A stretch of 64,000 nt of DNA from an uncultured Bacteroidota bacterium (lineage in GTDB: Bacteria > Bacteroidota > Bacteroidia > Bacteroidales > WCHB1-69). Shown piece after piece: positions 9,175 to 58,042 of the stretch (the stretch's first letter is position 1; the number at the start of each line of letters is the position of its first letter). Below the pieces are notes generated by a model. The model was not told where the DNA came from. It was given only the letters and a program-made list of their open reading frames with translations, and did not search any database. Location: positions 2,759,275 to 2,823,274 of the forward strand of contig OW818690.1 of assembly GCA_942493315.1 (NCBI GenBank). The letters run 5' to 3'. Position numbers and translations under genes: made by a program.

Positions 9175-9354
9175 GGGCATTCCGGCACCATCCGACACAC
9201 GAGCATACCCTGGTGCCGTCGGGCTTGTTCCGGGGTCCGCTTCGCTCCCGTACTTCGCTGCACTTCACTTAGGATCATTAGTTTCATCTCGCTAACTCAT
9301 CACGGCGTTCGTTCCAGCTCGTACCACCTCCGGTGCCCTCCACATCCCTAATGC
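9175..9354 (+). repeat. GC-rich structured element, copy D (most divergent)
   Basis: Starts GGGCATTCC and ends CCCTAATGC like the other copies. Internal stem CGGCACCA...TGGTGCCG. GC-rich in an AT-rich context. Track ORF 9104-9295 lies inside it and is judged spurious. Confidence 0.75.
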
Positions 9355-9410
9355 AATGAAAATCTGCCCCAAATTTATCCGCTGGGGGGTAATATTTCAT
9401 ATTCTAATAT

Positions 9411-9504
9411 ATGCAGGGTACGGTATAAATGTAAAAATAACATTTTTTATAACATCCATTCATTCAATTATTTACACAATTTTTCACCCTGCTTTTATAA
9501 GAAT
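9411..9504 (+). repeat. AT-rich hairpin module, copy M5
   Basis: ATTCTAATATATGCAGGGT ... ACCCTGCTTTTATAAGAAT terminal inverted repeat enclosing an AT-rich loop of about 56 nt. Lies 3' of GC-rich copy D, as in copies A/M3 and C/M7. Confidence 0.7.
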
Positions 9505-9516
9505 ATAATAGCACAA

Positions 9517-9562
9517 TCGAGCATTCGAGCATTCCGAGCATTCGAGCAACCGAGCATTCGAA
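9517..9562. repeat. Short tandem repeat (GAGCATTC-type units)
   Basis: cgagcattcgagcattccgagcattcgagcaaccgagcattcg, read directly. Confidence 0.8.
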
Positions 9563-12601: not shown

Positions 12602-12602
12602 A

Positions 12603-12730
12603 GACTACGGACTACGGACTACGGACTACAGACTACGGACTACAGACTACGGACTACAGACTACGGACTACAGACTACAGACTACGGACTACAGACTACA
12701 GACTACGGACTACAGACTACGGACTACAGA
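12603..12730. repeat. Heptamer tandem array GACTACG/GACTACA (~18 units)
   Basis: Read directly. Starts 2 nt after the stop codon of the EEP gene. Confidence 0.95.
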
Positions 12731-12744
12731 CATTTATCTTTAAT

Positions 12745-12938
12745 CACCTGTCCCCTGTCCCCTGTCACCTGTTACCTGTTACCTGTTACCTGTTACCTGT
12801 CACCTGTTACCTGTTACCTGTTACCTGTTACCTGTCACCTGTCCCCTGTCACCTGTTACCTGTTACCTGTCCCCTGTCACCTGTCCCCTGTCACCTGTTA
12901 CCTGTTACCTGTCCCCTGTTACCTGTCACCTGTCCCCT
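12745..12938. repeat. Heptamer tandem array CCTGTCA/CCTGTTA/CCTGTCC (~27 units)
   Basis: Read directly. Ends 2 nt before the stop codon (12941-12943) of the minus-strand 1404-aa gene. Confidence 0.95.
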
Positions 12939-28909: not shown

Positions 28910-28931
28910 TGACCTAATAGGGCAAAATCCA

Positions 28932-29012
28932 CCAACCTTTTATTAGATTAGCTATTCAGAGCTCAGTCGGCCCAATAGTCACGCATTTCCATTGTATTAG
29001 GGCGAAGGTCAG
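28932..29012 (-). repeat. Truncated junction fragment of the composite repeat (end of the AT module plus end of the GC-rich element)
   Basis: caaccttttattagattagc...gagctcagtcgg...gtattagggcgaagg aligns with 38716-38786 (junction of M7 and GC copy C). Confidence 0.6.
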
Positions 29013-29018
29013 ATAAAA

Positions 29019-29102
29019 AGACTACGGACTACGGACTACGGACTACGGACTACGGACAACGGACGAAAAATGAATAATGAAAAATGAATAATGGGAAATG
29101 AG
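29019..29102. repeat. Heptamer arrays GACTACG (x6, ending GGACAAC) followed by TGAATAA/TGAAAAA units
   Basis: Read directly. Same GACTACG unit as at 12603-12730. Confidence 0.9.
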
Positions 29103-33711: not shown

Positions 33712-35085
33712 ATGATTATAAATAGTATCATCAGGTTTTTTCATACAGATAATGAACTAACCATCAATAAATTAGGCAAATTTACTAAAAAACATATTGC
33801 ATCGCAATTGGAAGGTGGTCAAATTTTTCCACCTAAGGTTATTTTAGAGTTTGAATATAATGAAGATATCAATGGGTTTTCGTTTGTTGATAAAATATCT
33901 CAATGGGAGTCACTTCGGTTATTAGATGCTGATGATCAAGTTACTAAATGGGTAAAAGAATTAAAAAACGCCATTCAAAATAACAAAAGTGTTAGTTTTG
34001 AGAATTTTGGAACATTCTATATGAATCCAACCGGGGTTATTTGTTTTGATTCTGATATCATCAAGGAATTGAACAGTGAATATTACGGTATGGCACCGGT
34101 TCCGTTGAATAAGACGGGAGACGGGAGACAGGAGACGGGAGACGGGGGAATTCAGATTACGGACAACGGACTACAGACTATGGACGAGGGTATTCAGACT
34201 GCGGACAACGGACTACAGACTACGGACGAGGGTATTCAGACTGCGGACAACGGACTACAGACTACGGACGGGGGACTGGAGACTGGAGACGAGGGAGTAC
34301 AGACTGCGGACAACGGACTACAGACTACGGACGAGAGACTGGAGACGGGAGACGGGAGACAGGAGATTGGAGACGGGAGACAGGAGACGGGAGACGGGAG
34401 ACAGGAGACGGGAGACGGGAGACGTGAGATTGAGGACGACGGACTACAGACTACGGAAGAGGTTGAGGAAGAAGAAAAAGAAGAGGTTTTTATGCCGGTT
34501 AAAAAGAGAAAAAATAGATGGTTGGAGAGGCTCATTTTTATTTTGATTATTTTGGGATCAATCGGATTGGTTGCTTATCTTTTTAGATCTGATATAAAAA
34601 AATTCTATGATCAAAAATTTAATAAAAATAATCAGGTGGAAACCCCTACCCCTCAAGCTGTTGCGGTTGATACAAATATGGATGAATATATTGACTATGA
34701 AGCAGATTCTTTAGAAAATTCAAACTCTGCTACTAATACTTCAGAAGAGATTACTAATCCAACAGTTTCTAAAGTTGAGACAACAAAAAATTCAAATAAT
34801 TCCAATACAACAACAAAACCTGTTCAAATTGAAACAAATCAAAATGGAAGTAAAGATATTTCCTCCATTTCATTTGAAAAAGGGAAATTTTATGTTATTG
34901 CAGGTAGCTTTGGTAAAAAAAGTGATGCGATACAACATATCAAAGACAAAAAGTTAACACAATACAATCCTGTTCTTCTGGTTGGAGATTCAAGAGTCAG
35001 AGTTTGTATTGGAACCTATAAAACAGAAGCTGAAGCAACTGCTTTTGCTAAAAAAATTGATCAATCCTTTTGGGTATTAAAATAG
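33712..35085 (+). CDS. HU-like N-terminal domain / TM / SPOR-domain protein with an internal repeat-encoded low-complexity region
   Basis: C-terminal SPOR-like domain (GKFYVIAGSFGKKSDAIQHI...VRVCIGTYKTEAEATAFAKKI). Central TM segment (LIFILIILGSIGLVAYL). The Gly/Asp/Thr/Gln-rich region is encoded by heptamer repeats. Confidence 0.7.
   Translation: MIINSIIRFFHTDNELTINKLGKFTKKHIASQLEGGQIFPPKVILEFEYNEDINGFSFVDKISQWESLRLLDADDQVTKWVKELKNAIQNNKSVSFENFGTFYMNPTGVICFDSDIIKELNSEYYGMAPVPLNKTGDGRQETGDGGIQITDNGLQTMDEGIQTADNGLQTTDEGIQTADNGLQTTDGGLETGDEGVQTADNGLQTTDERLETGDGRQEIGDGRQETGDGRQETGDGRREIEDDGLQTTEEVEEEEKEEVFMPVKKRKNRWLERLIFILIILGSIGLVAYLFRSDIKKFYDQKFNKNNQVETPTPQAVAVDTNMDEYIDYEADSLENSNSATNTSEEITNPTVSKVETTKNSNNSNTTTKPVQIETNQNGSKDISSISFEKGKFYVIAGSFGKKSDAIQHIKDKKLTQYNPVLLVGDSRVRVCIGTYKTEAEATAFAKKIDQSFWVLK
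34113..34456 (+). repeat. Heptamer tandem repeats (GGAGACG, GGACTAC, AGACTAC and others) embedded in frame within a CDS
   Basis: Read directly. The units match the intergenic arrays at 12603 and 29019. The translation shows 7-aa periodic strings (GDGRQET, DNGLQTT). Confidence 0.9.
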
Positions 35086-37162: not shown

Positions 37163-37200
37163 TTAGAGGGGGTTTGGATTTTGATTTGGGGGATCTTTAT

Positions 37201-38758
37201 CCGACGGAGCACTCATTGGGTAATCTAATAAATGATGGGTAAAAAATTTAGTAAATTGTTTATTCATTGAAAGATATGAAATCTACTGATTTTGCATCCT
37301 TGTTTCACCAACCTTTTAATAGATTACCTAAATGAAAACCCAAATTTGAAATCTATCACCCATTTGACAACTCCAAAATCAAACCAAATTCTAAATTTAG
37401 CTCCTCTAAAATTAATCCAAATCTTCCTAAAATCAATCAGACTTTAGCTACAAACAAACCAATATTACCATTTTTAAATTAAATGGTTTTTTAATAACTT
37501 ATAAGATTATTTATTGTTTATACAAACATTTTGCAATGTTTGTAGTTTTCTTTCCCATTGTTGATTGAGATCGATTTTTCAATCATAGCAGATGAGGGAT
37601 CTAATCTGAATTTGATCTGTTCAAAGATCATATACCAATACAGATAGTTTTGCAGATAACTGGAGGATACTCCATGAAACCGATCCATAAATGCAATTAA
37701 CTTCAGGTATCTGCTTTCAATCGTTTTTGTATCATAATATTGGTTACATCCTTTCACTTTCTGATCCTTTTTTCTAATAAAGTAGCTGATCTTTCTCTTT
37801 CCTGCAAATTGTTTAAGAATCGGATGATCACTCAAACATAGTTTTTTTACTTTGTTTAGTTTTTTTCCAAGATGGTTCTTTAATTCTTCTTCTTGTAATG
37901 CACCTTGTTGAATAATTGTGATTTCAAAATGGGATATTCTGTCACCAATAGCCACTAAAGAAAGAGGTTTGTATTCCCCATTTCGGATACTTTCTGCTTT
38001 TCTATTACAGGCAGGATTCGTTATCTTTCCTTTTTGTCCTATTTGTTTAGCTTTGGCTCCTTGACCCTTTCGGGAGAAAGGTTCTGAAATATCAATCATT
38101 TCCGTTATTCCTCGATATTTATCCGGGACATATTCACCCAGAGAGGATATAATTTTATGTCTCCAATCAAATGAAGTTTGGTTAGAGATATCCAATGCAT
38201 CAGAACAATCTTTGATTCCTGTTCCTGATAACATCAACAAGAAGTAGGATTGTAGTTTCTCCTTCTTTTTGATGTAGGAAATTGTAGTACCTGAGAACTC
38301 ATTAAAGCTTCTGCCACAACTCTTACAAAGGAAATATTGAACTCCTTTTTTCTTACCGTTTAGAATAAAATGTGATTTTCCACATTTAGGACAAACTCTG
38401 ACTTGCTTCTCACTGATATACTTACATATAGAAGCCAAAGGATTAACAAAACTCTTTTTTTGGGGGGTAACTTCAGCAGATGGTGAGGGTTGAACTGAAG
38501 TAGGGTCAATGGTTTGCTTAGAGGATTGGGGTAGATCATTCATAGTATTTTGAGTTTAGTGAGTACTTGATATTGATGCAAATATAAACAAAAAAATGAA
38601 CGAATTGCAACAAAAATAAAAAAAAATCTGCTAATCTAATAAAAGATTGGTGCTATTGTGATGCAAAATCACAAGACTATAAAAAAGTGTTTAAAATCAA
38701 AAATATACCGAAAAACTCACCCATCTTTTAATAGATTAGCCAATTAAAGCTCCGTCGG
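37201..38758 (-). mobile_element. IS-like unit: IS1595-like transposase gene bracketed by inverted AT-hairpin modules of about 130 bp (M6 37201-37328, M7 38630-38758)
   Basis: The outermost 10 bp are perfectly inverted (CCGACGGAGC ... GCTCCGTCGG), followed by an extended imperfect inverted repeat through ATTGG-TAATCTA-TAAA-GATGGGT. No target-site duplication was recognised. Confidence 0.55.
37518..38543 (-). CDS. IS1595-family-like DDE transposase with an N-terminal zinc ribbon
   Basis: CPKCG...x18...CKSCG zinc ribbon. C-terminal HGVSSSYLQNYLYWYMIFE resembles the IS1595 (ISXO2-like) conserved end. A TATATTTG -7 box lies on the minus strand at 38579-38586. Confidence 0.6.
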   Translation of the reverse strand: MNDLPQSSKQTIDPTSVQPSPSAEVTPQKKSFVNPLASICKYISEKQVRVCPKCGKSHFILNGKKKGVQYFLCKSCGRSFNEFSGTTISYIKKKEKLQSYFLLMLSGTGIKDCSDALDISNQTSFDWRHKIISSLGEYVPDKYRGITEMIDISEPFSRKGQGAKAKQIGQKGKITNPACNRKAESIRNGEYKPLSLVAIGDRISHFEITIIQQGALQEEELKNHLGKKLNKVKKLCLSDHPILKQFAGKRKISYFIRKKDQKVKGCNQYYDTKTIESRYLKLIAFMDRFHGVSSSYLQNYLYWYMIFEQIKFRLDPSSAMIEKSISINNGKENYKHCKMFV

Positions 38759-38771
38759 ACAGTAAACCCCC

Positions 38772-38981
38772 GCATTAGGGCGAAGGCCAGGTACCCCGCA
38801 AGTTGAGCTGCTTAGGGCCTGACGGATCGGGCAGAGCGACGAAGGAGCTACTGCCCGGCCGATCAGACCCTTGCAGCGAAACGAGGAGTACAGGCCGGAG
38901 ACCGACCCTTTGGCCAGCGACGCGACTATTATTCATATTGGTCTGGATTTTTATTGAGCGCAGCCAAAGGGGAATGCCCTA
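38772..38981 (-). repeat. GC-rich structured element, copy C (reverse orientation)
   Basis: The reverse complement aligns along its length with copy A (47564-47770). It has the same CCTTTGGC...GCCAAAGG stem and a compensated CGGGCAG...CTGCCCG hairpin. Confidence 0.85.
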
Positions 38982-38999
38982 AATAACTAAATTTGAAAT

Positions 39000-40818: not shown

Positions 40819-40857
40819 ATTCTTTTTTTAGAGTATGCAAAAATACATTTTTTTTTG

Positions 40858-40865
40858 TAATTTTG
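40858..40865 (+). promoter_or_regulatory. -7 promoter box TAATTTTG driving the riboswitch leader
   Basis: TAnnTTTG located 3 nt before the proposed P1 stem of the riboswitch. Confidence 0.45.
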
Positions 40866-40868
40866 CCA

Positions 40869-41050
40869 TGATTTTCAACAAGGGAATCGGGTGAAATTCC
40901 TGAACAGTTCCCGCTGCTGTAAGTCTCATTAAGTTCTTAGGATTTAGCCACTGTTTTTATTCCAAAAATGGGAAGGCCCTCAAGAGAGACAAGTCAGAAA
41001 ACCTATTGTAAATCAAGCATTAAGGCTTCGGGAAAAAGCTGAAACGAACC
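40869..41050 (+). promoter_or_regulatory. Cobalamin (B12) riboswitch
   Basis: AAGGGAATCGGGTGAAATTCCTGAACAGTTCCCGCTGCTGTAAG matches the conserved GGGAA..GGTGAAA.TCC...CCCGC.GCTGTAA core. Also GCCACTG...GGGAAGGC, a B12-box-like AAGTCAGAAAACCT, and a P1 candidate TGATTT (40869-40874) / AAATCA (41010-41015). Confidence 0.75.
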
Positions 41051-41119
41051 GTTTGTTCCAACTCTTTCCGATTCCAAATTTATTCATCTAACCAATCCAT
41101 TTTGGTTACTAAAAACGAA

Positions 41120-42196
41120 ATGATGAAACGGGAAAATTTTATCAAAAGATTACAAAAATTGATCTTTTTATGTTTTGGAATTGTACTTTTAGCAGTTTCT
41201 TGTGAACCACCTATTGATCCTCCCATTAATCAGGGAGAAAGTGGTATTTATATCCTTAATGAAGGGGGTTTTAATATGAATAACAGCTCTTTAAGTTTCT
41301 TTAATTTTAAAGATCACTCAGTAATTGAAAATATTTTTCTGCAATCTAATAACCGCGGATTAGGGGATGTGGCAAACGATATGAAACAATATGGTAATAA
41401 AATCTACATTGTTGTGAATAATTCCGAAATTATTGAAATTATAAATCTCAAAACTGCTAAATCAATAAAGCAAATCTCACTTACAGGAAAACAACCTAGA
41501 AATATAACTTTTTTTGAAAATAAAGCTTATGTTAGTTGTTTTGATGGTACAGTTGTAAGAATTGACACAACAACTCTTCTAATAGATGGAACCATAACCG
41601 TTGGTTCAAACCCTGAAGGGATCTGTGTCGCCAATAATAAACTATATGTGGCTAATTCAGGAGGATTAAGTTCACCCATCACTTCCAATACAGTTTCTGT
41701 TGTTGATTTGAATAGCTATACAGAATTGAAAAGAATACCGGTTGCAATTGGCCCCAGGATACTTAAAACTGATCAATATGGAGATATTTATGTGTCATGT
41801 ACTGGAAACTATGGGAATATTCCTGCGTCATTTCATCGAATCAATACAATTACAGATGAAACTGTTGAAAATTTTAATTTAGAAGTTCATAATTTTACTA
41901 TCCAGGGAAATTTTGCTTATTTATATTCCTATGATTTTACTGATCAATCTAAATGGTTTAAAGTAATGGATATTTCTACTGAAAACATTGTAAAAGATAA
42001 TTTCATTTCTGATGGTACGCAAATTACTATTCCTTATGGGATAGCAATTGATCCGGTAACCAATTATATTTATATCACTGATGCAGGTGATTATGTGTCA
42101 ACCGGTGATGTATTTTGTTTTAATCAGAACGGAGTTCTTCAGTATCAATTCGAAGCTGGTATTATACCTAATGGAAGTATGGTTTTTAAAAGATAA
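41120..42196 (+). CDS. Surface lipoprotein with a YncE-like beta-propeller (DUF5074-like)
   Basis: Lipobox LLAVSC. Repeated blades of about 40 aa (G..P..I......YV.N.....V..ID). ATG 41120 is preferred to TTG 41102. Confidence 0.6.
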   Translation: MMKRENFIKRLQKLIFLCFGIVLLAVSCEPPIDPPINQGESGIYILNEGGFNMNNSSLSFFNFKDHSVIENIFLQSNNRGLGDVANDMKQYGNKIYIVVNNSEIIEIINLKTAKSIKQISLTGKQPRNITFFENKAYVSCFDGTVVRIDTTTLLIDGTITVGSNPEGICVANNKLYVANSGGLSSPITSNTVSVVDLNSYTELKRIPVAIGPRILKTDQYGDIYVSCTGNYGNIPASFHRINTITDETVENFNLEVHNFTIQGNFAYLYSYDFTDQSKWFKVMDISTENIVKDNFISDGTQITIPYGIAIDPVTNYIYITDAGDYVSTGDVFCFNQNGVLQYQFEAGIIPNGSMVFKR

Positions 42197-43563: not shown

Positions 43564-43700
43564 CGACAGAGCTATTTACCCCTATTCTAATAAATGATGG
43601 ATGAAAATTTTGTATCTATTTTATATTCAAACACATACAAAATTTCATTTTTTCTATCGAAACAGTATCAACCTTTTATTAGAATATAAAATATTGACGC
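43564..43700 (+). repeat. AT-rich hairpin module, copy M1
   Basis: CGACAGAGC...ATTCTAATAAATGATGG...CAACCTTTTATTAGAATATAAAATATTGACGCA. Near-identical to M2. Confidence 0.85.
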
Positions 43701-43791
43701 ACTTCGGTACATTTTTTTGTATTTTTCGTCATGAGTTCCGGATTTAAAAGTCGAGTAATTTTTCAATTTTGAACATTTGCAAATTATTCCC

Positions 43792-43799
43792 TATTTTTG
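43792..43799 (+). promoter_or_regulatory. -7 promoter box TATTTTTG upstream of the helicase gene
   Basis: TAnnTTTG followed by CA. It overlaps the TTG used as the start in the ORF track, which argues for a later start codon. Confidence 0.4.
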
Positions 43800-43847
43800 C
43801 ATTCCAAATTGCCACTAATTCATCATATTTCATCAAATTTAACTTTT

Positions 43848-46001
43848 GTGACTTCTTCTTTAAAATCAAATCTTAGTAATTTAAACACCCAACAACTAGA
43901 GGCTGTTATCAGTGACCATAAAAGACTTCTCGTATTAGCTGGTGCCGGTTCAGGTAAAACTAAAACACTTTTACAAAAAATTATCTATTTGATGGAAGAA
44001 AAAGGTGTTAGCCCTTCTCAAATACTTGCTATCACTTATACCAAAAATGCTACTAATGAAATGATTGATCGTCTCATTATCTCAGCTGATTCAACCGGAA
44101 ATTACGAAAAATTACTTTTGGATAGAAATCGTACTAAAGAGGAAAAAGAAAAAGAACGATATCTGCAACAAAAAAAATATAAATGGATTGATAACTTGAC
44201 TGTTAAAACATTCCATTCTTTTTGTTATTCGGTTCTAAGAAATTATGGTGTCAACGAATTCGATAATCAATTTAGAATTGTTGGGGATGAAAAGAAAGAA
44301 GAATCTGATGAATTAAATAAACATGTTGCTCCTGAAACGGCATTTGAGATTTTTCATAAACTATTGATTCATCAATGTGAAGATCATGAATACCTTTTAA
44401 AATTAAAAAGGCATATCCTTGATTATATGATTGATAAAATTCATATAAATCCAAAAAAGTCTGGATTTTTTGAATATGATGGTAAATTCTTTACTACACT
44501 CGACGGGATAAAAGTTAGATCAAAATCTGAACAATTTATTGCCGATTGGTTTTACCGACACTCTATCAAATACGAATATGAGCCTCTTTTGAACATTAAA
44601 GATTTCTCATTTCACCCAGACTTTTTTATTCCAGCTGCCAATCTTTATATTGAACATGTTAGTGATAAAAGTTATTCAACCAAAAATAAAGAGGAACAAT
44701 TTCGAAAAGGGAATCTATTGTTGGTGAAGACTTTTGAAAACATGACTACTGATTCAGCTCTTTTCAATCATACGCTAGATAATATTGTCAAGAATAGGTT
44801 ACCGGAACATTATCATGAGACTGTTGGATTAAATTTTAAAGAAGAATTTAATGGGTATCATGAAGATGTTAAAGATTTTGTTCGTCAAATCATGCGAATC
44901 ACCGATATGATCAAGGTTGAAAATATTGATATTGAAACAGTTTCTAAAAATGGACGAAATGACCAGCATGAAAGAGTTCGGCAATTTTATGAATTAGCGA
45001 TTCCAATCGTCAAAAAATATATTGAATATTGTACAGATAAATCCTTTTTAGATTTTAATGATCTGATTTCCAGAACTACATCTTTGTTTCAAAATCAAAA
45101 AGACATAGCGAATAAGTTCAGATCAAAATACAATTATATACTTGTGGATGAATTTCAGGATGTCAATAATTTACAAGTAGAGTTAATTCAATTGTTATTG
45201 ACAGAACAATCTCAGTTATTTTGTGTTGGTGATGACTGGCAAAGTATTTATGGTTTTAGAGGCTCCAATGTAAGTTATATTGTTGAATTTGAAAAACACT
45301 TTAAAGAAGCTAAAACGATAAAACTAAACCTAAATTACCGAAGCACTCAAAACATTGTGGGGGCAAGTAATGAGGTAATAAAACACAATAAATTCAAAGT
45401 GGAGAAAGAGATTTATGCATCAAAAAAATCGGAACACAAAATTGTGGTTTATGCTGGAAATAATGAAGATGAAAACCTTCAATTTTGCTTAGATAAAGTC
45501 AAAAAACTTCTCAAAGATGGCATCTCTAGTGACGATATTTTCTTTCTATACCGAAGAAGTAAAATGTACGCACCTTACTATTATAAATTCAGAAATGAAG
45601 GGATCAAAGTTCAAGGAAAAACAATTCATGCAGCTAAAGGGTTGGAAGCAAAAGTAGTCTTTATCATCGGCTTAACCGATGGGAATGGCGGGTTTCCGGA
45701 TATTTGGTTAGAAGATCGGATATTCCAGATGATCAAAAAATCAAACCATGATTTATTAATGGAAGAAGAGCGAAGACTTTTTTATGTTGCTATTACCCGA
45801 GCAAAAGAAAAGTTGTTTCTTATCACTGAAAAAGGATTTGAATCCAGCTTTTTAAAAGAGATTCCTGAAGTTTATACAGTAAGAACATCACAATACTTTA
45901 AAGCTGAAACTGAAAATGTTAAAACATGCCAAAATTGTTTAAGTCAGTTAGAAAATTTGTGGGTAGTTTGTCCTTATTGTGGAGAAAAAATTTGCGATTA
46001 A
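43848..46001 (+). CDS. UvrD/Rep-like SF1 helicase with an inserted PD-(D/E)xK-like module and a C-terminal zinc ribbon
   Basis: Walker A AGAGSGKT, TFHSFC, Walker B/motif II VDEFQDVN, GDDWQSIYGFRG, NYRS, and VAITRAKEKL (motif VI). The insert is RSKSEQFIADWFYRHSIKYEYEP...FHPDFFIP...LYIEH. C-terminal CQNC...CPYCG. The start is uncertain: GTG 43848, TTG 43809 or TTG 43797. Confidence 0.8.
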   Translation: MTSSLKSNLSNLNTQQLEAVISDHKRLLVLAGAGSGKTKTLLQKIIYLMEEKGVSPSQILAITYTKNATNEMIDRLIISADSTGNYEKLLLDRNRTKEEKEKERYLQQKKYKWIDNLTVKTFHSFCYSVLRNYGVNEFDNQFRIVGDEKKEESDELNKHVAPETAFEIFHKLLIHQCEDHEYLLKLKRHILDYMIDKIHINPKKSGFFEYDGKFFTTLDGIKVRSKSEQFIADWFYRHSIKYEYEPLLNIKDFSFHPDFFIPAANLYIEHVSDKSYSTKNKEEQFRKGNLLLVKTFENMTTDSALFNHTLDNIVKNRLPEHYHETVGLNFKEEFNGYHEDVKDFVRQIMRITDMIKVENIDIETVSKNGRNDQHERVRQFYELAIPIVKKYIEYCTDKSFLDFNDLISRTTSLFQNQKDIANKFRSKYNYILVDEFQDVNNLQVELIQLLLTEQSQLFCVGDDWQSIYGFRGSNVSYIVEFEKHFKEAKTIKLNLNYRSTQNIVGASNEVIKHNKFKVEKEIYASKKSEHKIVVYAGNNEDENLQFCLDKVKKLLKDGISSDDIFFLYRRSKMYAPYYYKFRNEGIKVQGKTIHAAKGLEAKVVFIIGLTDGNGGFPDIWLEDRIFQMIKKSNHDLLMEEERRLFYVAITRAKEKLFLITEKGFESSFLKEIPEVYTVRTSQYFKAETENVKTCQNCLSQLENLWVVCPYCGEKICD

Positions 46002-46006
46002 ATACG

Positions 46007-46144
46007 CGACGAAGCACTACACCCCTATTCCAATAAATGATGGGTAAAAATATTGTATCTATTTTATATTCAAACACATACAAAATTTAATTTTTTCAAT
46101 CGAAACAGTATCAACCTTTTATTAGAATATAAAATATTAACGCA
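46007..46144 (+). repeat. AT-rich hairpin module, copy M2
   Basis: Direct repeat of M1 beginning 6 nt after the helicase stop. Confidence 0.85.
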
Positions 46145-46360
46145 AATTGGATAATTTTGAGTTCAGATCCAGAAAGTTACAATTTCAACAAATCATAATT
46201 ATTCTTAATTTTTATATTTAATATTTATTATTTAGAATAATGTACTAAATTTGCATCATTAATAATCTTCAAAACCTACTTTTGAAGATTAATAGATTAA
46301 TTAAAATCTATTTCTTAATTTATTCTGAATTAACAGCTGAAATTTTAAAAAAAATATAAA

Positions 46361-47512
46361 ATGAAAAAACTATTATTTATTTCAATCCTTTTCTTTTCAA
46401 TGAATTTGAATGCACAATGGGCTCCAACCAATTGTCCCGGAACTGAGGTTCCCAAAATTGCAACTTATGGTAATTTACTATATGCTGCGACTGGTACTGG
46501 GGGTGGTTTTCATACTTCTAGTGATTCAGGACAAACTTGGACTGCTCCTTTTACTTTTCCATTAGGGGATTTTATTCAATCCGTTTTTTATTGTGATGGT
46601 TATTTATTTTTAGGAGGTTCTATTGGAAATTATAGATCTTCTGATGGGGGTTATACTTGGTCTCAAATGCCCACTTTAGTAGAGGAAACTTACTCTTTTT
46701 TAAAATTTGGATCGACAATATATGCCGGAACCTTTGGTGGTGGTGTATATAAAAGTATTGATACTGGAAATACATGGATTTCGTGTAATAATGGTTTATT
46801 TAATGGTTATATTCTTGCTTTAACAAATGATCAAAATTCATTATATGCTGCAAGTCCAAATGGACTATTCAAATCAATAAATAATGGGCAAAGTTGGCTT
46901 GACGTTACAATTTCTATTGGATCTCCCAACTTTGATGCAGTTACTTATGATGGAAGTTATATTATTGCCGGTGGTAACTATTGTGGAATTTACCGTTCTG
47001 CAGACGGTGGATCTACTTGGAATAGTGCTAACTCCGGTTTATCATCGACAGATATTAGGTCTTTATATACTGTCGGAGAAACGGTTTTTCTTGGTGGAGC
47101 TAATGGTGTAAAGTATTCTATTGACCATGGTGCAACCTGGGTAGATTACAATTTAGGATTTCCCGGAACATATTATGTAGAGAGTTTTTGTGTAATGGGT
47201 TCTACGCTTTTCTGTGGAACGATAACAAATGGTTTATGGAAACGTCAGTTAACAAATTCTTTATCAATTCCAACAATTGAAGAGCCGGTATTTTTCATTA
47301 TTCCTAATCCCAATAACGGAACATTTCAAATTTCACTTCCAAATGGAAATGAAACAGTTTTTATCACCAATAGTCTGGGACAAGAAATTTACAGAGCTAC
47401 AGCTAATAATAAATATACTTCAATAGATCTTGATGTACAGAATGGACTTTATTTTGTTAATATTCTGACAGATAAAGGAATTCTAAACCGTAAAGTTATA
47501 ATAAAAAAATAG
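46361..47512 (+). CDS. BNR/sortilin-type repeat beta-propeller protein with a T9SS C-terminal sorting domain
   Basis: Six S-x-D-x-G-x-T-W motifs (SSDSGQTW, SSDGGYTW, SIDTGNTW, SINNGQSW, SADGGSTW, SIDHGATW). C-terminal IIPNPNNGTFQI...GLYFVNILTDKG...IIKK. Confidence 0.8.
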   Translation: MKKLLFISILFFSMNLNAQWAPTNCPGTEVPKIATYGNLLYAATGTGGGFHTSSDSGQTWTAPFTFPLGDFIQSVFYCDGYLFLGGSIGNYRSSDGGYTWSQMPTLVEETYSFLKFGSTIYAGTFGGGVYKSIDTGNTWISCNNGLFNGYILALTNDQNSLYAASPNGLFKSINNGQSWLDVTISIGSPNFDAVTYDGSYIIAGGNYCGIYRSADGGSTWNSANSGLSSTDIRSLYTVGETVFLGGANGVKYSIDHGATWVDYNLGFPGTYYVESFCVMGSTLFCGTITNGLWKRQLTNSLSIPTIEEPVFFIIPNPNNGTFQISLPNGNETVFITNSLGQEIYRATANNKYTSIDLDVQNGLYFVNILTDKGILNRKVIIKK

Positions 47513-47563
47513 CACATTAACACTTTAGCATATTACTATTCACTATTAGTTATTCACTCTATA

Positions 47564-47770
47564 GGGCATTCCCCTTTGGCTGCGCTCAACCAAACCCCCA
47601 CCCCAACGAACAGAAACACCGTCGCTTGCCAAAGGGTCGGTCTCCGGCCTGTACTCCTCGCAGTTCCGCCAAGTGTTGCATCGGCCCGGCAGGAGCTCCT
47701 CCGTCGCTCTGCCGGTCTCGGCACCACTAAGCGTCCCTGCTTGCGGGGTACCTGGCCTCCGCCCTAATGC
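47564..47770 (+). repeat. GC-rich structured element, copy A
   Basis: GGGCATTCC...CCGCCCTAATGC. Stems CCTTTGGC/GCCAAAGG and CCGGCAG/CTGCCGG. Track ORF 47576-47767 lies entirely within it and is judged spurious. Confidence 0.85.
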
Positions 47771-47815
47771 AATTTCAGTAAGTGGTTAATATTTCAATTC
47801 GCCCCAAAACTTTAT

Positions 47816-47927
47816 ATTCTATTTAATGATGGGTAAAAATATTGTATCTATTTTATATTCAAATACATACAAAATATCATTTTTTCAATCGAAACACTAA
47901 CAACCTTTTATTGGAATATGAAATATT
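47816..47927 (+). repeat. AT-rich hairpin module, copy M3
   Basis: ATTCTATTTAATGATGGGTAAAAATATTGTATC...CAACCTTTTATTGGAAT. Lies 45 nt 3' of GC-rich copy A. Confidence 0.8.
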
Positions 47928-48052
47928 GGGATTTAATGGCAAAATTGGAGCATTTTTTTATTACTATTTTGTCAATAACTGTTATTTGTCTTGTCTCAAA
48001 TAAATATTTCAATATTTTATTTATTTTTGTAAACAAATATAAAAATTGATTT

Positions 48053-48916
48053 ATGTATAAAAGATTCATTCTTTTTTCGATTTTCTTACTATTATTTCAA
48101 AGCTCCTTTTTTGGTCAAGAGAATAAAAAAATGAATTTTTTTCCTATATGGACTTATCATCAAAAAAATATTAATATTCATGGTATATCAATTGGAATTG
48201 GAACTGTAAGATCCGTTCCACGTTTTACAAACACTAATGGAATTAAAATTGAACTAATAGGAGCGGGAATTGGTTTACTATTAATACCAAAGAGTCCATT
48301 AGCTTATGATGATAGTTCATTTATAGCTCTTGCAAACCAACCTATTTCAGAAATCATTAATGGGATAAGTCTGTCCGCTACTGGGACTGTTTGTGATTGT
48401 AAAACAAATGGAGTAAATATTGGTTTAATAGGAAATTTAAATTATCAGGTTAATGGACTTACAAGTTCAATTTTTATGAATTTTTCTCAGATCCATAACG
48501 GTTTACAATTTGCATTATTTAATGAAAGTTTTCTTTTAAATGGATTTCAATTGGGTTTATCAAATTTTGGATATCGGGTTAAAGGAGTACAATTTGGATT
48601 ATGGTATAATGAAAATAAAGAAATGAAAGGGGTCCAAAACGGAATTCATTTATATTTATTAACCATTAATTCACAGAATGAACAACTGATCGATTTTTAT
48701 GAAATTGGAACTCAAACAACACAATTTTTGGTATCCAAAGAGAATATGGATATTTATGAAGTATATGATGTTTCAGCAAAAAGGTTGGAATTTAATCAAT
48801 ACGAAGTGATCCGAAAAATGGAGATTCACTTTGATTTTAAAGATGAAAACAAGAACGATTCAATTATTCTTCAAACTCAAAAATGGAATATTAGCACATT
48901 ACGAAAACTACATTAA
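48053..48916 (+). CDS. Secreted repeat protein of unknown function (about 9 degenerate NG-x-Q/N-x-G-L repeats)
   Basis: Signal peptide. Repeats of about 20-24 aa (TNGIKIELIGAGIGL, TNGVNIGLIGNL, LNGFQLGLSNFG, VKGVQFGLWYNE, MKGVQNGIHLY). A TATTTTTG box lies at 48022-48029. Confidence 0.5.
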   Translation: MYKRFILFSIFLLLFQSSFFGQENKKMNFFPIWTYHQKNINIHGISIGIGTVRSVPRFTNTNGIKIELIGAGIGLLLIPKSPLAYDDSSFIALANQPISEIINGISLSATGTVCDCKTNGVNIGLIGNLNYQVNGLTSSIFMNFSQIHNGLQFALFNESFLLNGFQLGLSNFGYRVKGVQFGLWYNENKEMKGVQNGIHLYLLTINSQNEQLIDFYEIGTQTTQFLVSKENMDIYEVYDVSAKRLEFNQYEVIRKMEIHFDFKDENKNDSIILQTQKWNISTLRKLH

Positions 48917-48973
48917 TATTCATATAAATCCTTTCAAAACTTTTCACCTGGAAATAATTTCAAAAACATCAAA

Positions 48974-50242
48974 ATGAAACGATTCTCTTTATTTATTTTA
49001 TGGATTACTTTGGCACAATTGACTTTATACAGTCAACCAAAAACAGTTAAAACAAGTGTGTATTTTGATAGTGACAAATTTGTTTTGCGCGAAGATGGTA
49101 AAAATTCTATTGACGATATTTTGGATACTCTACTTCAATACAATATTGTAAAAATAACGATCACCGGGAATACCGATAATTCTGCTGATAGTTTGTATAA
49201 TCTTCAGCTTTCTGAAAACAGAACCAATGCTGTTAAAAGATATATTTTAGGGTATGGTATTGATGAAAAATTGATTAAAAGCAATTATTTTGGCGAAGAT
49301 AAACCTATTGCTCCAAATGACAACGACCAAGGGATGCAGATGAACCGAAGAGTTGATATCGTTTTCATTTATAAGAAAAAAAGTCCAAAAAAACAAATAG
49401 TTACCGATACTCTCCCAAAAATCGAGGAAAAAGCCGTTTTAAATGATGGTGATACTATTATCAATTTGCCCTATGGTACACAATTGGTTTTTAATCGCAA
49501 TGAATATTTAGAGATCAAGGATTGCTTGGAGTTTACAGAAGCCAATGATCCTAATTCAGTTTTATTGAATGGAATGTCATTGATGAACGATTCCGGAATT
49601 CCAATCGCCAGTTGTGGAATGTTAAAAGTAATGATGAAACCCGGTTGTACAGAAAGGATTTGTTTTAAATTTCCGGTAAAAGTCAGATTTCCTGTTCCTA
49701 AAGAAAATGAGTGTGATTATTGTAGAAGAAATGCACGAGTTTGGGATATTAATAGTCGAGGAACATGGGTTACAGAACAAGGTAGAAAAAGTCGGGTGAA
49801 AACGATTCGAGTGAATGGAGTTGCCTATTATGAATTTTTTATTTATTGTCCAAATTCATGGAAAAATTGTGACTGTTTAATAAAAGGGAAAAAAGTAAAG
49901 TTTAAAACCCAAAAAAACTATAAAATTGTAAATCTGACAATTACAAATGATTGTCCTACGTTGGTAATCAACACACATTCAAAAAAAAGGGAGCATGTTG
50001 CAACTGCAATAATTCCATGTTGGCAGGGTTATAAGACTATCAGCGGAAAAATCATTGACGATAAAGGTGACACTTTAATCTTACAACAACAACCCCTCAA
50101 TGATTTAACCAAAAGAACCCTATTTTCAAGATGTCACAGATATAAGGGACAATATATCGGTTATCGTTTATGGATTTTCCCTATTCACAAACGGGATGTT
50201 TACAGAAAATACATCATAAAGCCCAAGGATCTCCAATTATAA
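48974..50242 (+). CDS. OmpA-domain protein with a Cys-rich C-terminal extension
   Basis: Signal peptide. OmpA-like peptidoglycan-binding motif (ITGNTDNSADSLYNLQLSENRTNAVKRYIL...NRRVDIVF). The C-terminal 270 aa carry many Cys and match no domain I recognise. Confidence 0.7.
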   Translation: MKRFSLFILWITLAQLTLYSQPKTVKTSVYFDSDKFVLREDGKNSIDDILDTLLQYNIVKITITGNTDNSADSLYNLQLSENRTNAVKRYILGYGIDEKLIKSNYFGEDKPIAPNDNDQGMQMNRRVDIVFIYKKKSPKKQIVTDTLPKIEEKAVLNDGDTIINLPYGTQLVFNRNEYLEIKDCLEFTEANDPNSVLLNGMSLMNDSGIPIASCGMLKVMMKPGCTERICFKFPVKVRFPVPKENECDYCRRNARVWDINSRGTWVTEQGRKSRVKTIRVNGVAYYEFFIYCPNSWKNCDCLIKGKKVKFKTQKNYKIVNLTITNDCPTLVINTHSKKREHVATAIIPCWQGYKTISGKIIDDKGDTLILQQQPLNDLTKRTLFSRCHRYKGQYIGYRLWIFPIHKRDVYRKYIIKPKDLQL

Positions 50243-50355
50243 ATGTTATTTAACTGTATATAACTGTAAATGTGTTCAAATTTTCACTATTATTTGTCAT
50301 ATTTTATTAGAACATTATCACATTAATTAAGGTATTCCGTTTTGCCGCCCCACAT

Positions 50356-50458
50356 ATTCTAATAAATGACGGGAGAAAATAATTTTATTTATATCATTTA
50401 CAAATACTTACAAAATTTCATTTTTTCAATCAAAACAACAACCTGCTTTTATAAGAAT
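50356..50458 (+). repeat. AT-rich hairpin module, copy M4 (preceded by a remnant of about 20 bp resembling the fused ends of the GC-rich element)
   Basis: ATTCTAATAAATGACGGGAG...CAACCTGCTTTTATAAGAAT. Upstream GGTATTCCGTTTTGCCGCCCCA (50332-50352) resembles the GGGCATTCC and CCGCCC ends. Confidence 0.7.
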
Positions 50459-50596
50459 ATCTAAAACCTGTGGATTTGTATCGAAGGGGTAAGAGTTTTG
50501 CTAATATTCAAATTTTCAATTGTTATTTCAATACGTTTATATATATTTGTGCCAAAAATCAATGTACCAGAATAAGTAAAATAAACTCCTAATTTC

Positions 50597-54209: not shown

Positions 54210-54280
54210 TTGTTGTATCAATTTATGGATGCAAATATACCAAATAATTTATGAATATATTAAAAGTAAATATTTTTTTA

Positions 54281-54341
54281 GGTTTTGGGTTTTGGGTTAT
54301 GAGTTTTGGGTCTTGGGTTTTGGGTCTTGGGTTTTGGGTTA
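54281..54341. repeat. Heptamer array GGTTTTG/GGTCTTG (~9 units)
   Basis: Read directly. Its reverse complement (CCCAAGACCCAAAACCC) occurs at 57952-57969 on the other side of the island. Confidence 0.9.
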
Positions 54342-54387
54342 TTGCATAAAAAATTAATATCTAAAACCTTAAAACTAATATCTTTTT

Positions 54388-54567
54388 GGGCATTCCGGCA
54401 CCATCCCACCCACTTTCCTACCCTGCTGCCGTCGGTCTCCGGCCTGTACTCCTCGCAGTACCGCCAAGTGTTGCATCGGCCCGGCAGTAGCTCCCAAGGT
54501 CGCTCTGCCGGTCTCGTGCACCACTAGGCGTCCCTGCTTGCGGGGTACCTGACCTCCGCCCTAATGC
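54388..54567 (+). repeat. GC-rich structured element, copy B
   Basis: GGGCATTCCGGCA...TGCCGTCGGTCTCCGGCCTGTACTCCTCGCAG...CCGGCAG-TAGCTCCCAAGGTCGCT-CTGCCGG...CCGCCCTAATGC. Confidence 0.85.
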
Positions 54568-54571
54568 TTCT

Positions 54572-54692
54572 CGGGCTCAGGGCTCAGGGCGAAAGGCCAA
54601 GGGCTATCAGCTATCAGTTTTCAGCTATCAGTTTTGCATTTTGCTTATTTAGTGGCTGTTGTCTGTGGTCTGTAGTCCGTAGACCGTTGTCC
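54572..54692. repeat. Mixed short tandem repeats (GGGCTCA, CAGCTAT/CAGTTTT, and the complement of GACTACR)
   Basis: Read directly. Track ORF 54564-54824 is a translation of repeats and is judged spurious. Confidence 0.8.
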
Positions 54693-54700
54693 AAAATTGA

Positions 54701-54930
54701 GGAACGTTATATTTGTAGCAAATCAACCTCCGACAACTCCAACCCGCTCCGTAGGAGCGTTATATTTGTAGCCAATCAACCTCCGACAAAACCACTTCGC
54801 TCCAGCGGAGCGTTATATTTGTAGCCAAACAAATACCCGACAAAACCACTTCGCTCCAGCGGAGCGTTATATTTGTAGGCAAACGATTACCCGACAAAAC
54901 GATCCCGCTCCAGCGGAGCGTTATATTTGT
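54701..54930 (-). repeat. REP-like 53-54 bp hairpin units, ~4 copies, inverted relative to the downstream array
   Basis: Four CGCTCC-N3/4-GGAGCG hairpins, each followed by TTATATTTGTAG. The reverse complement matches the CAAATATAACGCTCCGCTGGAGCG units at 57170-57600. Confidence 0.9.
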
Positions 54931-54972
54931 TTTTTTTATTTCAAAAATTATGAATAATTAAAATAATTTCAC

Positions 54973-54980
54973 TATTTTTG
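54973..54980 (+). promoter_or_regulatory. -7 promoter box TATTTTTG upstream of the Y1 transposase gene
   Basis: TAnnTTTG, 26 nt before ATG 55006. Confidence 0.45.
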
Positions 54981-55005
54981 CTTCACTCTCTTAAAACTAA
55001 TTATT

Positions 55006-55476
55006 ATGGCTAACACTTACTCTCAATGCTATTTTCACCTTGTTTTTTCTCCTAACATTTCAAAATCATTAATTGATACATCTTGGAGCAATAATCTAGA
55101 AATTTTCATTACATCAATTGTTCAGGAAAATGTACATAAAATGATTGCCATTAAATGTATGCCTGATCATGTTCATATCTTTTTTGGATATAATTTGAAT
55201 CAAAAAATACCTGATTTGGTTAATGTCATTAAAATGACTTCTTCAAAATGGTTGAAAGAACAAAATTTTTGTAAAAACTCATTTAATTGGCAAAATGGGT
55301 ATGGTGCTTTTACTCATGTAAAATCTTCTGTTAATGATGTTTATAATTACATTATGAATCAAGAAAATCACCATAAAAAAATAAGTTTTAAAGAAGAATT
55401 TTTATCATTTTTAAAAAGAAATGAAATTGATTATCACGATGATTATTTATTCCATTTTTTAGACCCTAAGTTTTAA
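55006..55476 (+). CDS. IS200/IS605-type Y1 (HUH) transposase, REP-associated (RAYT-like)
   Basis: HUH motif in MPDHVHIFF. WQNGYGAFT. C-terminal catalytic Tyr helix SSVNDVYNYIMNQENHH (Y-I-x-N-Q). 156 aa. No tnpB partner. Flanked by inverted hairpin repeats. Confidence 0.85.
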   Translation: MANTYSQCYFHLVFSPNISKSLIDTSWSNNLEIFITSIVQENVHKMIAIKCMPDHVHIFFGYNLNQKIPDLVNVIKMTSSKWLKEQNFCKNSFNWQNGYGAFTHVKSSVNDVYNYIMNQENHHKKISFKEEFLSFLKRNEIDYHDDYLFHFLDPKF

Positions 55477-55485
55477 TTCCAAAAA

Positions 55486-57635
55486 CCAATTTAACGCTCC
55501 GATGGAGCGGGTTCGTTTTGTCCGTTATTTGTTTGCTACCAATTTAACGCTCCGATGGAGCGGGTTCGTTTTGTCCGTTATTTGTTTGCTACCAATTTAA
55601 CGCTCCGCTGGAGCGGGTTCGTGTCGCCGGTTATTCGTTTGCTACCAATATAACGCTCCGCTGGAGCGGGTTCGTGTCGTCCGTTATTTGTTTGCTACCA
55701 ATATAACGCTCCGATGGAGCGGGTTCGTTTTGTCCGTTATTCGTTCGCTACAAATATAACGCTCCGCTGGAGCGGGTTCGTGTCGACCGTTATTCGTTCG
55801 CTACCAATTTAACGCTCCGCTGGAGCGGGTTCGTTTTGTCCGTTATTTGTTTGCTACCAATTTAACGCTCCGATGGAGCGGGTTCGTTTCGCCTGTTATT
55901 TGTTTGCTACCAATTTAACGCTCCGCTGGAGCGGGTTCGTTTTGTCCGTTATTTGTTTGCTACCAATTTAACGCTCCGTTGGAGCGGGTTCGTGTCGCCG
56001 GTTATTCGTTTGCTACCAATATAACGCTCCGCTGGAGCGGGTTCGTGTCGCCGGTTATTCGTTCGCTACCAATTTAACGCTCCGCTGGAGCGGGTTCGTT
56101 TCGCCGGTTATTCGTTCGCTACCAATTTAACGCTCCGCTGGAGCGGGTTCGTTTTGTCCGTTATTTGTTTGCTACCAATTTAACGCTCCGTTGGAGCGGG
56201 TTCGTGTCGCCGGTTATTCGTTCGCTACCAATATAACGCTCCGCTGGAGCGGGTTCGTTTTGTCCGTTATTCGTTCGCTACAAATTTAACGCTCCGATGG
56301 AGCGGGTTCGTTTTGTCCGTTATTTGTTTGCTACCAATTTAACGCTCCGCTGGAGCGGGTTCGTGTCGCCGGTTATTCGTTTGCTACCAATTTAACGCTC
56401 CGATGGAGCGGGTTCGTTTTGTCCGTTATTTGTTTGCTACCAATTTAACGCTCCGATGGAGCGGGTTCGTTTCGCCTGTTATTTGTTTGCTACCAATTTA
56501 ACGCTCCGCTGGAGCGGGTTCGTTTCGCCGGTTATTCGTTCGCTACCAATTTAACGCTCCGCTGGAGCGGGTTCGTTTCGCCGGTTATTCGTTCGCTACC
56601 AATTTAACGCTCCGCTGGAGCGGGTTCGTTTTGTCCGTTATTTGTTTGCTACCAATTTAACGCTCCGATGGAGCGGGTTCGTTTTGTCCGTTATTTGTTT
56701 GCTACCAATTTAACGCTCCGATGGAGCGGGTTCGTGTCGCCGGTTATTCGTTTGCTACCAATTTAACGCTCAGATGGAGCGGGTTCGTGTCGCCGGTTAT
56801 TCGTTCGCTACCAATTTAACGCTCAGATGGAGCGGGTTCGTTTCGCCGGTTATTCGTTTGCTACCAATATAACGCTCCGCTGGAGCGGGTTCGTGTCGTC
56901 CGTTATTTGTTTGCTACCAATTTAACGCTCCGCTGGAGCGGGTTCGTGTCGTCCGTTATTTGTTTGCTACCAATTTAACGCTCAGATGGAGCGGGTTCGT
57001 TTTGTCCGTTATTCGTTCGTTACCAATATAACGCTCAGATGGAGCGGGTTCGTTTTGTTCGTTATTCGTTCGCTACCAATTTAACGCTCCGCTGGAGCGG
57101 GTTCGTTTTGTCCGTTATTCGTTCGCTACCAATTTAACGCTCCGCTGGAGCGGGTTCGTTTTGTCCGTTATTCGTTCGCTACAAATATAACGCTCCGCTG
57201 GAGCGGGTTCGTTTCGCAGGTTATTCGTTTGCTACCAATATAACGCTCCGCTGGAGCGGGTTCGTGTCGTCCGTTATTCGTTTGCTACAAATATAACGCT
57301 CCGCTGGAGCGAGTATGTTTTGTCCGTTATTCGTTTGCTACAAATATAACGCTCCGCTGGAGCGAGTATGTTTTGTCCGTTATTCGTTTGCTACAAATAT
57401 AACGCTCCGCTTGAGCGGGTTCGTGTCGTCCGTTATTCGTTTGCTACAAATATAACGCTCCGCTGGAGCGAGTATGTTTTGTCCGTTATTCGTTTGCTAC
57501 AAATATAACGCTCCGCTGGAGCGAGTATGTTTTGTCCGTTATTCGTTTGCTACAAATATAACGCTCCGCTGGAGCGAGTATGTTTTGTCCGTTATTCGTT
57601 TGCTACAAATATAACGCTCCGATATAGAGGGTTAC
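55486..57635 (+). repeat. Tandem array of ~40 REP-like 53-bp hairpin units
   Basis: The period is exactly 53 bp by counting (ACCAATTTAACGCTCCGCTGGAGCGGGTTCGTTTTGTCCGTTATTTGTTTGCT). Each unit has a CGCTCC-N4-GGAGCG hairpin. There are several unit subtypes. The last 7 or so units include five copies of a distinct GAGCGAGTATG variant, interrupted by one GGGTTCGTG-type unit. Confidence 0.97.
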
Positions 57636-57711
57636 ATCGAACTTCTAATATCTAACTTCTCCAGTCACCAGTCTCTCGTCCCTTGTCCTAAACAAAACCG
57701 CAGGTTTTGTT

Positions 57712-57874
57712 GCGTTAGGACGGAGCCGAGAAAGCCCGCAAAGGAGGAAGCCGATGTGATGCAGGGAGGAAAAGAGCGAACTTGTGAGCTCCTTTTACGA
57801 CCATGCAGTCACACGGCTTACGACTGCGGACTTGAAGGCGGAGACCGACGGCGAGCCTGCGAGCCGGAACGCCC
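57712..57874 (-). repeat. GC-rich structured element, copy F (reverse orientation, divergent)
   Basis: The reverse complement begins GGGCGTTCCGGC and ends CCGTCCTAACGC, and shares GTCGGTCTCCG and the AGCTC...TTCGCT loop. Track ORF 57756-57938 lies on it and is judged spurious. Confidence 0.75.
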
Positions 57875-57880
57875 AAAAAA

Positions 57881-57969
57881 GACTAAAGACAAAGGACGAA
57901 GGACAAAAGTCAAATTAAAAATGAAAAATGAAAAATGAAAAATGAGAAAAACCCAAGACCCAAAACCCA
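57881..57969. repeat. Short tandem repeats (AAGGACR units, AAAAATG x4, CCCAAGA/CCCAAAA)
   Basis: Read directly. Confidence 0.85.
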
Positions 57970-58042
57970 GAAATTAATTCCGTGAATAGTGCGTATTGAT
58001 ATTTTTATATACTTAGATGGGGAATAATTCACCATTTTTTCG

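Follow-up and report, generated by a model that had tools for sequence, protein, structure and literature searches.

Dispersed hairpin modules in an uncultured Bacteroidales bacterium as probable derivatives of the ends of a divergent IS1595-family insertion sequence

Introduction

Insertion sequences (ISs) of the IS1595 family duplicate 7–9 bp, usually 8 bp, of A/T-rich target DNA. Smaller dispersed repeats include miniature inverted-repeat transposable elements (MITEs), such as the Correia elements of Neisseria and the ERIC sequences of enterobacteria, which are 100–150 bp long, intergenic and free of open reading frames (ORFs), and fold into hairpins through inverted-repeat arms; classical MITEs have both termini of an IS. 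In the bacterial interspersed mosaic elements (BIMEs) of enterobacteria, which are mosaics of repetitive extragenic palindromes (REPs), short motif types are arranged in variable intergenic orders and are linked to REP-associated tyrosine transposases (RAYTs). Here, we analyzed a stretch of 64,000 nucleotides (hereafter designated the window; contig OW818690.1 of assembly GCA_942493315.1, positions 2,759,275 to 2,823,274, forward strand) from an uncultured Bacteroidota bacterium (Bacteroidales; WCHB1-69), in which AT-rich hairpin modules (M) and a GC-rich structured element (G) lie between genes.

The original prediction, made from the letters of the window, described four plus-strand modules separating consecutive co-oriented genes, and regarded the layout as resembling either a cassette array divided by foldable recombination sites or a series of repeated terminator/insulator modules. 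We propose that M is probably the subterminal foldback segment of a divergent IS1595-family IS, and that the four modules are solo, transposase-less copies, namely MITE-like derivatives or decayed relics, located between ordinary chromosomal genes.

Results

Hairpin modules form the two ends of a transposase element

The four modules were found at the predicted places, and their cores, after refinement, are designated M1–M4. A hidden Markov model (HMM) built from M1–M4 recovered three further copies, M0, M5, and M6, giving seven in the window. M5 and M6, which enclose a transposase gene (tnp), had been overlooked in the original prediction, as had the element G upstream of M3 and M0 and a ~35-nt extension of the module. 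The copies and the IS are listed below.

M1, 43579–43692, plus strand: solo hairpin module 5′ of the helicase gene; with its CGACAGAGC box, the conserved unit covers ~43564–43700
M2, 46021–46135, plus strand: solo hairpin module just past the helicase stop codon, with orthologues in loci L077 and L079 of relatives
M3, 47813–47924, plus strand: hairpin module, 42 nt 3′ of G3
M4, 50351–50462, plus strand: solo hairpin module past the OmpA-domain gene and ahead of the S41 peptidase gene; M or G-M follows the OmpA gene in relatives
M0, 9394–9512, strand ambiguous (minus scored higher by a broader HMM): divergent module with a GCAGGGT/ACCCTGC inner stem, beside G0
M5, 37217–37331, plus strand: IS end 3′ of tnp, in inverted orientation to M6 and lacking an outer G
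M6, 38625–38742, minus strand: IS end on the promoter side of tnp, leading into a T-run and the tnp promoter (TAnnTTTG)
tnp, 37518–38543, minus strand: gene of a 341-aa divergent IS1595-family transposase with a zinc ribbon and a DDE-type domain (NCBIfam)
M5-tnp-M6-G6, 37163–38999, minus strand: inserted block of ~1.8 kb, absent at the orthologous site of L079

As described originally, the module consists of an outer inverted repeat, TATTCTAATAAA/TTTATTAGAATA, around an AT-rich interior (~70–80 nt); the conserved unit also takes in ~35 nt on the upstream side, with a CGAC(N)GAGC box. The divergent copy predicted near 9411–9504 indeed pairs through GCAGGGT/ACCCTGC, and M1 and M2 are near-identical direct repeats (95% identity; 88% for M1/M3 and 78% for M1/M4). 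A degenerate two-arm pattern had five matches in the window, compared with 0.00 expected from 100 shuffles. The M arms also have a weak, partial match at 28916–28957 (E ~0.01, both strands), beside a GACTACG tandem repeat; it may be what is left of a decayed module.

The tnp product scored 41 bits against the NCBIfam model NF050000 (IS1/IS1595 zinc domain; cutoff, 28) and matched 205 of the 215 positions of NF033547 (IS1595 transposase) with an E value of 3e-14, below the 75-bit full-length cutoff; Pfam gave only a weak zinc ribbon. The protein keeps the conserved CxxC..CxxC, FDWRHK, DR, and YLQNYL motifs and is 24–29% identical to known IS1595 transposases over 76–88% of the length. Its database homologues at 30–34% identity carry PF12762, one among the homologues listed is named an IS1595 family transposase by its source, and all 12 matches listed (of 101 records) from a plasmid tblastn search are annotated as IS1595-like.

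Seven further IS copies in other Bacteroidota contigs share the layout of the window, with G usually preceding M: G (often), a linker of ~30 nt (GGGG..CCGACGGAGC), M, a T-rich stretch, the TAnnTTTG promoter, tnp, inverted M (sometimes two), inverted linker, and inverted G. The element is accordingly bounded at both ends by inverted repeats, composite ends of ~350 bp that are far longer than usual for IS1595. M flanks tnp in inverted orientation in all eight IS copies aligned, the transposases of which are just 55–60% identical to that of the window, and the tnp family is the sole ORF family recurring beside M/G repeats. Moreover, in L079, whose helicase is 89% identical, the seven flanking genes are in the same order and the glycosyltransferase and 353-aa genes are separated by 5 bp at the place of window positions 37163–38999; because this site is empty in L079, the block is an insertion. 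The element is also multicopy, with at least eight variant transposases, 94–96% identical to that of the window, on one 3.47-Mb NCBI contig.

Distribution, pairing, and placement of the modules

When species-representative genomes were scanned with the M pattern, 3–4 true matches were obtained, in two Bacteroidota metagenome-assembled genomes (MAGs) only. A metagenome scan with the G pattern gave 69 loci, in which nhmmer identified 91 G and 76 M copies. G alone (44) was followed in frequency by G-M (23), M alone (19), M-G-M (8), G-inverted M (6), and G-M-M (3), and G..g pairs also occur; the distance from G to M was constant at 26–41 nt in ~36 composites. Short contigs terminate at M/G repeats. 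Neither M nor G was found in the viral contigs scanned, no Rfam family was matched by either (gathering thresholds for the whole window, E ≤ 10 for 47480–48060), the cobalamin riboswitch described below being the only hit, and a literature search on M/G motifs and on IS1595 MITEs in Bacteroidetes returned nothing relevant.

The foldability claimed for the modules is borne out by compensatory changes in the arms. Among 63 distinct copies, the 20 pairs of the outer stem, which was defined by hand since RNAalifold gave no consensus structure for these copies, were paired in 79% of cases versus 42–48% when the partner was slid, and double changes were seen in 10 of the 20 pairs. A frequent feature is a T/T mismatch (AAATG versus CTTTT), the position 20–104 being unpaired in 41 of the 63 copies. 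Between solo M1–M3 and IS-borne M5/M6, the arms are 80–88% identical and the loops ~50%; overall, arm conservation is 75–88%. This arm pattern is consistent with paired protein-binding or inverted-repeat arms, or with a hairpin, and does not by itself separate a DNA-level from an RNA-level role. The antisense strands of G and M fold slightly better, and the G+C skew makes a strand test by folding energy uninformative.

No M copy was found inside an ORF (0 of 81; broader HMM, duplicate loci removed). For 42 placements, the orientation relative to the neighboring genes was mixed: >M> in 20, <M> in 8, <M< in 7, and >M< in 7. The distance to stop codons ranged from 20 to 678 nt.

These data bear on the terminator/insulator idea in its general form, in which M would act mainly at the RNA level, as a hairpin in 3′-untranslated regions that terminates, insulates, or stabilizes transcripts like REP/BIME sequences and is retained for that reason. 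Such a role would fit the position of M2 and several other copies, which begin 20–33 nt or less past a co-oriented stop codon, the predominance of the >M> context, the retention of M at orthologous sites, the T-runs behind the IS-borne copies, and the canonical small terminator present at the position of M in many M-less G copies. However, T-runs follow only the IS-borne copies; M1–M4 have no U-tract, a terminator scan found no terminator-like site at any of them, and their stems are weak and AT-rich (about −20 kcal/mol per 120 nt), in addition to the missing RNAalifold consensus. The spread of stop-codon distances and the 15 of 42 placements that face away from the upstream gene also argue against it. 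A dedicated terminator role for M1–M4 is thus disfavored and the RNA-level explanation as a whole seems unlikely, although M may have been exapted for an RNA-level function.

Genes between the modules

From M1 to beyond M4, Pfam identified a UvrD-type helicase, a protein with a type IX secretion system (T9SS) sorting tail, an OmpA-domain protein, and an S41 peptidase, in agreement with most of the labels given originally; no nuclease domain was detected by Pfam in the helicase, the BNR match in the T9SS-tail protein was sub-threshold, and a 287-aa protein preceding the OmpA-domain protein had no Pfam match. M2 does start right after the helicase gene, the conserved unit beginning a few bases beyond the stop codon at 46001. 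The TAnnTTTG box claimed for each downstream gene is present between module and start codon in all four cases (43792, 46277, 48022, and 50542), with gene leaders of 100–220 nt; a sigma-70 promoter scan was uninformative for this phylum. The helicase ORF (43797–43848 region) probably begins downstream of the TTG assigned to it: its homologues span 97% of its length, and alignment with the L079 orthologue begins at 43848, which puts the box at 43792 on the 5′ side of the true start.

The helicase is ~80% identical to >100 homologues listed, the few with source names being from Bacteroidota MAGs and isolates (Chitinophagales, Ferruginibacter), and on these comparisons it is taken to be a core gene. 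In L077 and L079, too, M lies on either side of it at the orthologous positions. A G remnant persists at the M1 orthologue of L079, a full G accompanies the M4 orthologue of L082, and in L076 an inverted G end with tandem repeats takes the place of M by the helicase gene. The helicase-flanking copies are 87–95% alike within each genome, whereas orthologous copies are 68–74% alike, which indicates gene conversion or replacement.

Beyond the modules, gene neighborhoods vary among relatives. In the window, M2 is followed by 8.4 kb (from the gene with the BNR match to G54); the corresponding interval of L077 and L079 holds a 166-aa gene, and then comes the Y1 transposase gene, which is shared. In L049, there is no S41 gene between M and a histidine kinase gene; in L062, a trypsin-like gene is joined directly to G-M and a 207-aa gene; and in L081, M is interrupted after ~50 nt by the start of G. 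In L051, whose OmpA DNA is 97% identical, an additional ~490 bp comprising M and an inverted G separates the gene of a 200-odd-residue protein from the OmpA gene, with ragged boundaries. The suggestion that direct repeats provide recombination substrates is supported in that the repeats lie where neighborhoods differ and the paralogues evolve in concert. Gene content varies among the neighbors beyond the modules; the core helicase is M-flanked in both relatives.

The idea of an integron-like array, in which M would be an attC-like folded site and the intervening genes cassettes mobilized by a site-specific recombinase whose gene lies elsewhere, draws on the co-orientation of M1–M4 with the genes, on the conserved T/T mismatch and compensatory changes in the hairpin, and on the gene blocks bounded by M/G that have different neighbors in relatives (L077/L079, L049, and L062). 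It does not withstand the remaining data. The modules are inverted end segments of a DDE IS; a scan of 40 window ORFs showed neither a tyrosine nor a serine recombinase (no Phage_integrase or resolvase match); the module alignment contains no GTTRRRY-type core, its conserved ends being TATTCTAATAAA and TTTTATAAGAATA; the genes are not promoterless, and one of them is a core gene; and M orientation is mixed elsewhere and the examined indel boundaries are not site-specific. We therefore regard a cassette mechanism as very unlikely.

The 287-aa protein (48053–48916), the "repeat protein" of the original prediction, shares only its C-terminal 93 residues (54–68% identity) with 207–215-aa proteins at the same position in L049, L051, L062, and L082, and its N-terminal part is variable even where the adjoining OmpA gene is 98% identical. 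The region is otherwise occupied by housekeeping genes (gyrA, thrS, ffh, folD, etc.). A cobalamin riboswitch (Rfam RF00174, 84 bits; 40841–41024, plus strand) lies 5′ of a DUF5074 gene (41102–42196), an arrangement kept in L079.

The GC-rich element G and the RAYT locus

Five copies of G occur in the window, in long (~207 nt) and short (~180 nt) forms, and short tandem repeats accompany them.

G6, 38772–38979, minus strand: long-type GC-rich structured element abutting M6
G3, 47564–47770, plus strand: long-type GC-rich structured element 5′ of M3
G0, 9175–9354, plus strand: short-type GC-rich element 5′ of M0
G54, 54388–54567, plus strand: short-type GC-rich element with no adjoining module
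G57, 57712–57877, minus strand: short-type GC-rich element, inverted relative to G54 and followed by a small terminator-like hairpin
Tandem repeats of 7–8 nt: 9513–9560, 12533–12800, 28997–29078, 34099–34423, 54260–54345, 54570–54690, and 57900–57970; also in the flanks of most G/M copies elsewhere

G is ~60% G+C, compared with 33.6% for the window, and has invariant ends, GGGCATTCC...CCCTAATGC. For 44 distinct long-form copies, RNAalifold predicted a structure of 43 pairs; double compensatory changes occur in 15 of these, and several show three pair types. More than 90 copies are present in loci L002–L075, and many M-less ones close with a canonical small hairpin and a T-run at the position of M, followed by 7–8-nt tandem repeats. 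Truncated inverted "mini" G copies are seen in L044 and L016. The ends of M and G are sharp, and no constant tetranucleotide was found in the G flanks. The 7–8-nt tandem repeats, which vary in sequence (GACTACG, CGAGCATT, GGTTTTG, GCTATCA, and others) and are reminiscent of cyanobacterial heptamer repeats, stand beside nearly every G or M copy and obscure the element boundaries.

We know of no RNA component for DDE insertion sequences of the IS1595 family. It is conceivable, if doubtful, that G would represent a new structured RNA on the ends of this IS1595-type transposon and its derivatives, that it would act with the M hairpin in transposition or in regulating it (for example in targeting, in recognition of the ends, or in insulation from read-through), and that G/M units would actively re-assort the gene blocks that they bracket.

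A RAYT-like gene and its own repeats are also present in the window.

RAYT-like Y1 transposase gene, 55006–55476, plus strand: Pfam Y1_Tnp, E 7e-24; the same gene and repeat occur in L079
RAYT locus, 54690–57650: inverted arrays of a 53-bp REP-like unit with the hairpin CGCTCCAGCGGAGCG, ~5 copies upstream and ~40 downstream

Mobilization of M and/or G as single-strand hairpin elements by this IS200-like enzyme, in the manner of REP doublets forming hairpins (REPINs) or palindrome-associated transposable elements (PATEs), would accord with the presence of the gene in the window between G54 and G57 and with the sharp ends, co-varying structure, and lack of a detectable target-site duplication (TSD) of M/G, but is highly improbable given that the RAYT is flanked by 53-bp arrays unrelated to M, that Y1 homologues are rare among M/G loci (two fetched loci, versus ~12 with an IS1595-like gene always in fixed register with M), and that G has no constant flanking tetranucleotide.

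Discussion

The IS1595-derived origin of the modules suggests how the solo copies might behave. The zinc-ribbon/DDE transposase would bind the conserved arm TATTCTAATAAATGnnGGGT, which occurs four times per IS and twice, in inverted orientation, per solo M; because of these two inverted arms, a solo M may represent a minimal transposase substrate. Within the IS, the M hairpin and T-run that precede the tnp promoter would keep read-through transcription out of the gene. Dispersed copies presumably serve as substrates for homologous recombination and gene conversion, which would explain both the likeness of neighboring copies (88–95%) in the face of diverged orthologues (68–74%) and the breaks of gene neighborhoods at repeats. 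The cassette-like appearance would then arise because the copies behave as recombination-prone dispersed repeats.

Several observations weigh against this explanation. The transposase falls under the curated full-length NCBIfam cutoff and is missed by the Pfam DDE_Tnp_IS1595 model. No 8-bp TSD was detected around the window IS, the G..g pairs, the solo M copies, or the L051 indel, the flanks being diverged and full of short tandem repeats. Typical IS1595 terminal inverted repeats (TIRs) are short (14 bp in ISApl4; PMC12561309), in contrast to the 350-bp composite ends. Single sub-modules, M alone or G alone, are the commonest forms, and the spread of solo M and G may reflect decay, recombination, or another mechanism rather than transposition. 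G itself may belong to the IS, may be a target that the IS prefers, or may be an element in its own right. Finally, there is a mild excess of co-oriented modules among co-directional gene pairs (20 of 27, from placements that are not independent), which could reflect a role at the RNA level.

An IS1595-derived origin nevertheless remains the probable one, and replaces the idea of an integron-like cassette array for Bacteroidota with that of IS1595-derived mosaic repeats in intergenic DNA, which break metagenome assemblies, are homogenized locally, and coincide with breaks of synteny. Three features set these repeats apart from a routine MITE: IS ends that are unusually long and structured, sub-modules that often stand alone, and a GC-rich structured element not yet catalogued. 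They offer a concrete system for asking how the ends of DDE transposons evolve and whether structured end transcripts function.

Comparison with known systems places the repeats as follows. The window IS resembles IS1595-family members (ISSag10, ISCco2, ISMsa1, and ISApl4) in its single zinc-ribbon plus DDE-type transposase, inverted ends, multicopy nature, and A/T-rich intergenic insertion; it differs in its ~350-bp G+M ends, as against known TIRs of 14–40 bp, in the absence of a detected 8-bp duplication, and in a transposase too divergent for the Pfam family model. With integron attC sites, M shares imperfect palindromes, a similar length, a location between co-oriented genes, and a conserved mismatch, but not IntI (looked for among the 40 window ORFs), an R′/R″ core, or promoterless genes, and it lies next to core genes with mixed orientation elsewhere. 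Like BIMEs, the repeats form a mosaic, of M, G, linker, and 7–8-nt tandem repeats in variable orders; unlike BIMEs, they are linked to a DDE transposase and not to a RAYT, the window RAYT having its separate 53-bp repeat. Solo M1–M4 are close to the Correia and ERIC MITEs in being short (~115 bp), non-coding, and intergenic, with foldable arms that match a resident IS. They depart from MITEs in that each is one sub-module of an IS end instead of joining the two outermost termini, in showing no TSD, with ragged ends in the one close-relative indel, and in persisting at orthologous sites (M1 and M2 in L077 and L079), where the copies are homogenized locally.

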